Made by a program: the position numbers and the translations under genes. DNA of 64,000 nt from Nitrosopumilus sp. (GTDB lineage Archaea; Thermoproteota; Nitrososphaeria; Nitrososphaerales; Nitrosopumilaceae). Numbering within the stretch: the stretch's first letter is position 1; the number at the start of each line of letters is the position of its first letter. The stretch covers positions 1,344,001 to 1,408,000 of the forward strand of contig OY759726.1 in the NCBI GenBank assembly GCA_963662625.1, in the 5' to 3' direction. The notes beneath the pieces were generated by a model. That model ran no database searches. It saw only the letters and a program-made list of their open reading frames with translations, and was not told the DNA's origin. Positions 41,501 to 41,807 of this stretch are shown piece by piece.

Positions 41501-41807
41501 GCGCCGTCTGCCCGCCGTACGCCAGCATGATCCCGTCGGGCCTCTCCTTCTCTATTATCGATTCCACGTACTCCGGCGTGACTGGCAGCAGGTACACCTG
41601 GTCGGCGAACCTGGTGTCCGTCTGTATGGTGGCGATGTTCGGGTTGATGAGGATGCTCTTCAGCCCGTCTTCGCGTATGGCCTTGAGGCACTGGCTTCCG
41701 GAGTAGTCAAACTGGCGGCCGTTTTAGCGGCTTTCGCCGGCTTCTCCGATTTTTATTGCCCCGCTACCAAGCACGAGGAGCTTGCTTAACGACTCATTCC
41801 TGGGCAG
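38544..41807 (-). CDS. carB: carbamoyl-phosphate synthase large subunit, split gene: exon 1 41807-41733, exon 2 41711-38544 (1080 aa when joined)
   Basis: Two ATP-grasp halves plus an MGS domain. The N-terminus LVLGSGAIKIGEAGE|FDYSGSQCLKA is recovered only by removing 41712-41732. Probable CTG start at 41807. Confidence 0.9.
41712..41732 (-). other. putative 21-nt bulge-helix-bulge-type mRNA intron in carB
   Basis: AGCCGCUAAAACGGCCGCCAG with an in-frame UAA; 4-bp GGCG/CGCC helix with cut sites AA^A and AG^U. Confidence 0.85.

Follow-up and report, generated by a model that had tools for sequence, protein, structure and literature searches.

A short intron of the tRNA type probably interrupts the carB mRNA of Nitrosopumilus and many related archaea

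The gene for the large subunit of carbamoyl-phosphate synthase (carB) in a Nitrosopumilus genome contains a stop codon close to its beginning, which raises the question of how a complete enzyme could be made from it. The window analysed is a stretch of 64,000 nucleotides from this genome, and carB is read from its minus strand. There the codons GGA GAA GCC GGC GAA are followed by the 21 nt AGCCGCUAAAACGGCCGCCAG (41712..41732, minus strand) and then by TTT GAC TAC TCC GGA. Read straight through, the frame gives G-E-A-G-E (upstream ...IKIGEAGE), then S-R-stop-N-G-R-Q with the in-frame UAA at 41726-41724, then F-D-Y-S-G (downstream FDYSGSQCLK...). A sequence-only reading of this DNA had reported a 21-nt insert with an in-frame TAA that splits GEAGE from FDYSG, and the sequence is as it described. 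CarB is a core enzyme of arginine and pyrimidine synthesis, and its sole gene carries the insert. The 21 nt are a real intervening sequence, neither an artefact nor a sign of gene decay, and they very probably represent an archaeal endonuclease-type intron of the carB pre-mRNA with an HBh'/BHL motif.

The coding sequence on either side of the insert is well preserved. Exon 2 (38544..41711, minus strand) comprises 1055 codons and a stop, contains no further stops, and matches the NCBIfam model for the large subunit (TIGR01369) with 1355.7 bits over model positions 25-1051 of 1052. The missing positions 1-24 are exactly the N-terminal stretch encoded by exon 1 (41733..41807, minus strand), whose 25 codons specify the N-terminal strand and glycine-rich loop of CarB. 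The small-subunit gene carA (41794..42966, minus strand) is intact, with CPSase_sm_chain and GATase domains, and lies directly upstream, its stop overlapping the carB start region. The genome is one contig of 1,858,698 bp with 63.4% G+C and is rated 99.5% complete; a search of it with the exon-2 protein returned a single carB and two weak ATP-grasp relatives. The earlier statement that carA and the rest of carB show no decay is borne out, and of the second intact carB that would have spoken against an intron there is no sign in this genome.

The figure of 25 codons for exon 1, and with it a CarB of 1080 aa, assumes translation from the CTG at 41807-41805, a start inferred from relatives and plausible on that ground. 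GGAGG lies at 41817-41821, 9 nt upstream of this CTG. Between the upstream stop and carB codon 12 the source genome has no ATG, GTG or TTG. CTG occupies the start position in the source genome and 14 others of 30 loci (L004-L033), and elsewhere the relatives have ATG or TTG. CTG may be the usual carB start across much of the family and, if so, would be another source of error for gene callers.

For comparison, the exon-2 protein was searched in 41 close genomes and 121 genomes of the class, and the DNA upstream of the FDYSG codons was read in every genome with a carB match, giving 99 loci (L004-L102). An insert at the identical codon boundary is present in 51 of these 99 species genomes; the remaining 48 loci are precisely without it and read ...AGEFDYS... 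or a close variant. Relatives with same-position inserts of variable length, many of them not multiples of three, were what the sequence-only reading had looked for, and they exist. The lengths are 21 nt at 31 loci, 22 nt at 11, 20 nt at five, and 17, 23, 26 and 30 nt at one locus each. Nineteen of the 51 inserts are not multiples of three, and there the two exons lie in different frames; the other 32 are multiples of three, and all 32 contain an in-frame stop. The amino-acid sequence of exon 1 is kept in all 51 intron-bearing genomes, even when it is out of frame with exon 2. As read from the DNA, no insert among the 51 loci is translatable and none resembles decay. The insert occurs in 42 of 65 genomes of the source genome's family, in members of eight further families of the same order, and in one genome of another order of the class; beyond the class, the same phylum has 111 carB-bearing genomes, and none of the 40 sampled among them, from 21 families, has it. 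A minor observation concerns L164 (genome G136, same family, complete), in which a one-base deletion in an A-rich run near exon-2 codon 438 shifts the frame; this is either a sequencing error or a real frameshift, and not an intron.

Metagenome contigs scanned with a pattern of the exon flanks, gap 0 being allowed, gave at least 120 matches; among the 80 listed, which were chosen by their flanks and are therefore uninformative on insert frequency, 72 have inserts of 16-27 nt and eight have none. Seven of the eight gapless matches lie on multi-kb contigs. They are not evidence of spliced RNA, five being distant homologues or a broken contig and three being family-like intron-less genes. These three carB genes (L242, L248 and L263; 4.5-11-kb contigs, 88-89% identical over 85 aa) keep GC-rich intron-type flanks around the uninterrupted site and have the appearance of a recent, precise loss of the intron, for instance by way of a spliced copy. 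Species genomes scanned by the flank pattern with a gap of at least 1 likewise gave at least 120 matches, of which 80 were listed. The listed titles include Nitrosopumilus, Nitrosarchaeum, Nitrosotenuis, Nitrosotalea, Nitrosopelagicus, Cenarchaeum, Nitrososphaera, Nitrosocosmicus and Nitrosomirales. Some of the listed carriers are cultured strains, and the records of Candidatus Nitrosotenuis chungbukensis MY2, Candidatus Nitrosopumilus salarius BD31 and Candidatus Nitrosotalea bavarica SBT1 contain the insert. It measures 21 nt in MY2 and 22 nt in BD31, where its length precludes read-through. Four MAG contigs (L347, L370, L368 and L383), labelled Methanosarcinales, Woesearchaeota or 'archaeon' and encoding a CarB 58-67% identical to that of the source genome, have inserts of 17-18 nt of the same build at the same carB boundary. 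L347, L370 and L383 have a further break in exon 1 a few codons upstream, where a stop stands in place of the expected GSGxxK; this break may be a second interruption. L331, a 2.5-kb contig labelled Heimdallarchaeota, has a CarB start 86% identical to that of the source genome and the common Nitrosopumilaceae-type 21-nt intron; it is probably mis-binned.

Pooling the three sets (51, 72 and 80) gives 203 inserts with 110 distinct sequences, in which some species may be counted twice since the 51 and the 80 both come from one-per-species GTDB collections. Of the distinct inserts, 52 have a length divisible by three, and each of these contains a stop; the six whose loop lacks one terminate in UAA.

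In the proposed RNA, the end of exon 1, GGCG-AA, would contribute GGCG (41735..41738, minus strand; Gly-Glu codons) to a 4-bp central helix with CGCC of the intron (41714..41717). On the 5' strand, this helix would be followed by a 3-nt bulge, AAA (41732..41734), with the 5' splice site after the second A, and then by a 4-bp intron hairpin h' (41718..41731) made of GCCG (41728-41731), the loop CUAAAA (41722-41727) and CGGC (41718-41721). On the 3' strand, the helix would be followed by AG (41712-41713) and the 3' cut, in an asymmetric internal loop closed by an outer exon-exon helix of UCGGAG (41744..41749) with CUCCGG (41698..41703) and a few more pairs. The pairing drawn in the sequence-only reading recurs in two predictions: the minimum-free-energy fold of the single sequence contains GGCG/CGCC, the AAA bulge and GCCG(CUAAAA)CGGC, and RNAalifold, run on the alignment with no model supplied, returns the same three helices and three more exon-exon pairs. 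On its own, the single-sequence fold does no better than chance (z = -0.71, with 38 of 200 shuffles folding equally well), so the structural case rests on the comparison with relatives.

That comparison used an alignment (A1) of the 51 intron-bearing loci, in which the pairs of the earlier model were counted per cell. Standard pairs form in 98.6% of cells, a share that falls to 23-52% if the 3' partners are displaced by 1 to 3 columns. Pairing reaches 100% of cells in the intron hairpin (columns 42-45 with 61-64), three of whose four pairs have compensatory changes (UA 32, CG 12, UG 2; CG 37, UA 9; GC 35, AU 8, CG 1, UA 1). The central helix (columns 35-38 with 65-68) is paired in 96.7% of cells; its pair 37-66 changes from C-G to U-A in two sequences, and its weakest pair is the outermost (G-C in 31, G-U in nine and unpaired G.A in six of 46 distinct sequences). 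Covarying helices across relatives had been proposed as a check on the intron, and three hairpin pairs and one central-helix pair supply them. The outer helix UCGGAG/CUCCGG is paired in 98.9% of cells and is nearly invariant, so that its columns show no covariation and pairing neither proves nor disproves it; an alternative 5' arm, CGGGG (columns 10-14), pairs as well as UCGGAG. Among the 110 distinct introns, the central helix has four of four pairs in 97 and three of four in 13, the hairpin has at least 3 bp in all, and the bulge is AAA or AGA in 108.

The locus has the 4-bp central helix across the splice sites and the 3-nt bulge closed by the intron helix h' that characterise BHB-type substrates. 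A second 3-nt bulge with the outer helix stacked directly on it, as in the strict hBHBh' motif, is absent; RNAalifold places the 3' splice site in a 1 x 5 internal loop, with columns 34 and 69-73 unpaired. With its 3' site in an asymmetric loop the motif is relaxed (HBh'/BHL, as these forms are defined in PMC5829648), not a strict BHB, and the label 'relaxed BHB/BHL' given to it earlier was apt.

On such a substrate, a heterotetrameric (alpha-beta)2 endonuclease would cut two nt 3' of the central helix on each strand, at AA^A (between 41733 and 41732) and AG^U (between 41712 and 41711). RtcB would then join the exons to GAA|UUU, and the mRNA would encode GEAGEFDYSG and a full-length CarB; left unspliced, it would terminate at UAA after about 27 codons. 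Applied to the 51 intron-bearing genomes, the rule of cutting two nt 3' of a 4-bp central helix brings the exons back into frame in every one: after the cuts that it gives, exon 1 ends in GGNGAR and exon 2 begins with UUY in every case, which restores G-E|F-D, and the earlier claim that cuts at AA^A and AG^U recover GEAGEFDYSG holds in all 51. Moving both cuts one base toward the 3' end would turn Phe into Ile. In intron-less relatives, the tryptic peptide across this junction reads IGEAGEFDYSGSQCLK. In the same genome, tRNA-Phe(GAA) has a 14-nt intron with a central helix CUGA/UCAG and the required 7-nt anticodon loop, which on our own reading obeys the same two-nt rule as carB. Further tRNA introns, 13, 16 and 49 nt long and canonically placed, are called by Aragorn, whose predictions of introns running to hundreds of bases are likely false.

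The exon bases themselves appear to be constrained. Third-codon-position entropy was compared within the family between intron-bearing (n = 42) and intron-less (n = 23) genes, with the same amino acids in both groups. It is 0.28 in intron-bearing versus 1.81 in intron-less genes at codon -10, 0 versus 0.67 at codon -6, 0 versus 1.58 at codon -5, 0 versus 1.24 at codon -2, 0 versus 0.26 at codon +2, and 0.37 versus 0.84 at codon +4, whereas the control codons -14 to -12 are alike (1.78, 1.48 and 1.44 versus 1.49, 1.33 and 1.19). The synonymous bases concerned belong to the central and exon-exon helices, and only intron-bearing genes have them frozen. Part of this pattern could stem from shared descent or exon co-conversion instead of RNA structure; because kin are not independent and co-conversion is possible, the frozen exon sites are support for the fold, not proof of it.

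The source genome contains two splicing-endonuclease genes (PF01974; 104.8 and 86 bits), both called endA by NCBIfam, and one RtcB (584.7 bits). With 32% identity between them, the EndA paralogues differ at the positions that we take to be catalytic: Tyr, His and Lys are present in one, whereas the other lacks the His. Judged by sequence, the two constitute an alpha/beta arrangement. Thaumarchaeota have the (alpha-beta)2 type of endonuclease, and relaxed motifs are cut only by the (alpha-beta)2 and epsilon2 types, according to PMC4090602 and PMC5829648. The host encodes an endonuclease type able to cut relaxed motifs together with the RtcB ligase. From these enzyme genes, and from the anatomy, conservation and covariation of the insert, we infer cleavage and ligation and the identity of the acting enzymes. 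Removal of the intervening sequence from the RNA by some nuclease or ligase in place of EndA and RtcB is very improbable. Its non-canonical 3' site would suit such a reading, but EndA and RtcB are both encoded in the genome, and we know of no other archaeal system that excises 17-30 nt precisely. The motif is, moreover, the one defined for EndA in PMC5829648.

Slightly less credible still is programmed translational bypassing (hopping) of the T4 gene 60 type, in which ribosomes would take off at GAA and land before UUU, with the hairpin as the signal. The locus does resemble such a site in its short gap, its hairpin and the closeness of a stop. Bypassing of this type uses matching take-off and landing codons, whereas the take-off codon here, GAA or GAG, is unmatched by the pre-landing codon, which is CAG, CAA, UAA, AAA, AAG, AAU, CAU or UAG. 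The in-frame stop two codons after take-off is absent from several inserts that are not multiples of three. A covarying 4-bp helix, a 3-nt bulge and cuts at a fixed distance are needs of EndA, not of the ribosome.

The stop inside the gene, and the fact that the longest conventional carB ORF begins at GTG 41597, could be taken to mean that carB is a decaying pseudogene or that only the exon-2 product is made, from an internal start. This is harder to credit than bypassing: carB has no second copy in a genome rated nearly complete, carA is intact, exon 2 is free of stops, and the exon-1 amino acids are conserved in 51 of 51 genomes, even out of frame. An internal start would delete the conserved N-terminal strand and glycine-rich loop.

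An assembly or sequencing artefact, in favour of which stands nothing beyond the oddity of the insert itself, has a negligible chance of being the explanation, given that 51 genomes assembled separately, many as single contigs, have an interruption at this site, as do 72 of the 80 listed environmental contigs, and that contigs from three public runs retain the insert. Reads lacking the insert had been named in the sequence-only reading as the mark of an assembly error; the contigs of the three runs, which belong to one study that is possibly the assembly's source and so are not independent of it, cover 41200-42200 or most of it, insert included, with 0 differences. Over the locus they have the DNA-like, unspliced form only. 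A second, more abundant relative is present in those runs, and its contig extends into its own version of the insert. All three runs also contain a 32-nt contig corresponding to 41677-41708, with a depth of 285-290 against 3-25 for the source organism; these are the first bases of exon 2, a sequence common at the nucleotide level to many co-occurring relatives.

Other identities and locations were surveyed as well. A self-splicing group I or II intron, or a member of an Rfam family, was rejected: 41500-41950 has no Rfam match to E = 1, and the insert is only 17-30 nt long. No homing-endonuclease domain was found in the 24 ORFs within about 10 kb of carB, and LAGLIDADG_3 has no match across the whole source genome. 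A regular expression for the carB-type motif matched, genome-wide, only carB and one non-pairing chance site, and mtnA (PF01008) and cbf5 (PF01509) of the source genome carry no interruption. A de novo scan of the coding sequence for BHB-like motifs, with open-frame and GC3 filters, gave 1668 candidates versus 1608 for a decoy motif and missed carB itself, so it is uninformative on other mRNA introns.

The history of the carB intron was followed on a maximum-likelihood tree built from exon 2 bases 61-1800 (61 rows; L006, L011, L021, L024, L032 and loci represented by only 261 nt left out). Intron-bearing lineages stand at all deep branches of the family. The tree implies at least six changes of intron state, four of them forced by well-supported branches, a count that is rough because uneven base composition is flagged in many rows. 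An old intron that was lost precisely several times is the simplest reading, and such a history was also argued for cbf5 in PMC2738675. The carB intron is widespread and probably ancestral in ammonia-oxidising archaea.

A regulatory role for the carB intron is unsupported. It seems doubtful that this mini-intron is more than a passenger, and two ways in which it might be can be named. One is a splicing checkpoint. All 52 distinct variants with a length divisible by three keep a stop, so that unspliced mRNA would never yield a CarB with a damaged ATP-binding loop, and this universal stop may reflect selection against read-through of unspliced mRNA; if the checkpoint were real, CarB synthesis would be tied to tRNA-splicing capacity. 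The other is repeated colonisation of the site by a mobile BHB intron: since the same boundary is occupied in MAG contigs labelled Methanosarcinales and Woesearchaeota, it may be a repeated target of mobile introns across archaeal phyla.

The kind of intron proposed for carB is known, and the only precedent within a coding sequence found in the searchable literature is cbf5. A BHB intron in the cbf5 pre-mRNA of Crenarchaeota (Desulfurococcales, Sulfolobales) is attributed to Watanabe (2002) in PMC2738675 and PMC7714728. Besides the Haloferax 5'-UTR intron, the cbf5 intron is the only mRNA intron reported according to PMC7714728 (2020), and PMC2738675 describes introns in other protein genes as predicted, not confirmed. 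Both the cbf5 and the carB introns are short, lie in coding sequence, are presumably removed by a tRNA splicing endonuclease of hetero-oligomeric type, occur in some lineages while being precisely absent from relatives (gain and loss), and are mis-read by gene callers. Unlike cbf5, carB encodes a metabolic enzyme, not an RNA-modification enzyme, its host lineage is the mesophilic Nitrososphaeria, and its intron measures 17-30 nt and lies some 25 codons into the gene. Experiments have demonstrated splicing for cbf5, whereas for carB it is predicted.

Relaxed tRNA introns (HBh', hBH, BHL), as described in PMC5829648, resemble the carB intron in build: the central helix has 4 bp, an intron helix closes a single 3-nt bulge, and the other splice site lies in a loop. 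These tRNA introns are cut by an EndA of the (alpha-beta)2 or epsilon2 type; the carB host has alpha and beta subunits. In contrast to these introns, the carB substrate would be an mRNA without a tRNA body, in which the exon-exon helix is made of codons. In the HAC1 and XBP1 system, the endonuclease IRE1 recognises paired RNA motifs and a tRNA ligase joins the exons, under stress regulation. Such splicing of HAC1 and XBP1 mRNA in eukaryotes by IRE1 and RtcB is mentioned in PMC13149111. The carB case would resemble it in having a short mRNA intron, a tRNA ligase, no spliceosome, and a downstream frame that depends on (predicted) splicing. The nuclease and the motif differ, and stress regulation is a feature of the HAC1/XBP1 system. 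The EndA of Haloferax volcanii is of a different type from that predicted here. The BHB intron in the 5' UTR of H. volcanii HVO_1309, as presented in PMC7714728, is a further case of an mRNA serving as splicing-endonuclease substrate; it lies in an untranslated leader and the reading frame is independent of it, whereas the carB frame depends on its intron.

No paper on a carB intron was found in a full-text literature search, with subscription papers and supplements outside its reach. Ammonia-oxidising archaea are among the most abundant microbes in oceans and soils, and in most of their sampled lineages a central metabolic gene would carry an intron of the same kind as cbf5. The 110 natural variants would serve as a mutational map of what the endonuclease tolerates. 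In intron-bearing genomes, gene callers will report carB as truncated, frameshifted or pseudo, and metabolic reconstructions could consequently infer arginine or pyrimidine auxotrophy wrongly.

The neighbourhood of the operon adds a few minor observations. Upstream of carA lies a gene for a Vps4-like AAA ATPase with an MIT domain (43035-44537, minus strand). Some 2 kb downstream of carB there is a weak DDE transposase match (35558-36688, minus strand), which at E 2.5e-4 falls below the family cut-off. A 497-aa ORF at 37111-38604, which has no family match and overlaps a metallophosphoesterase ORF on the other strand, is probably spurious.
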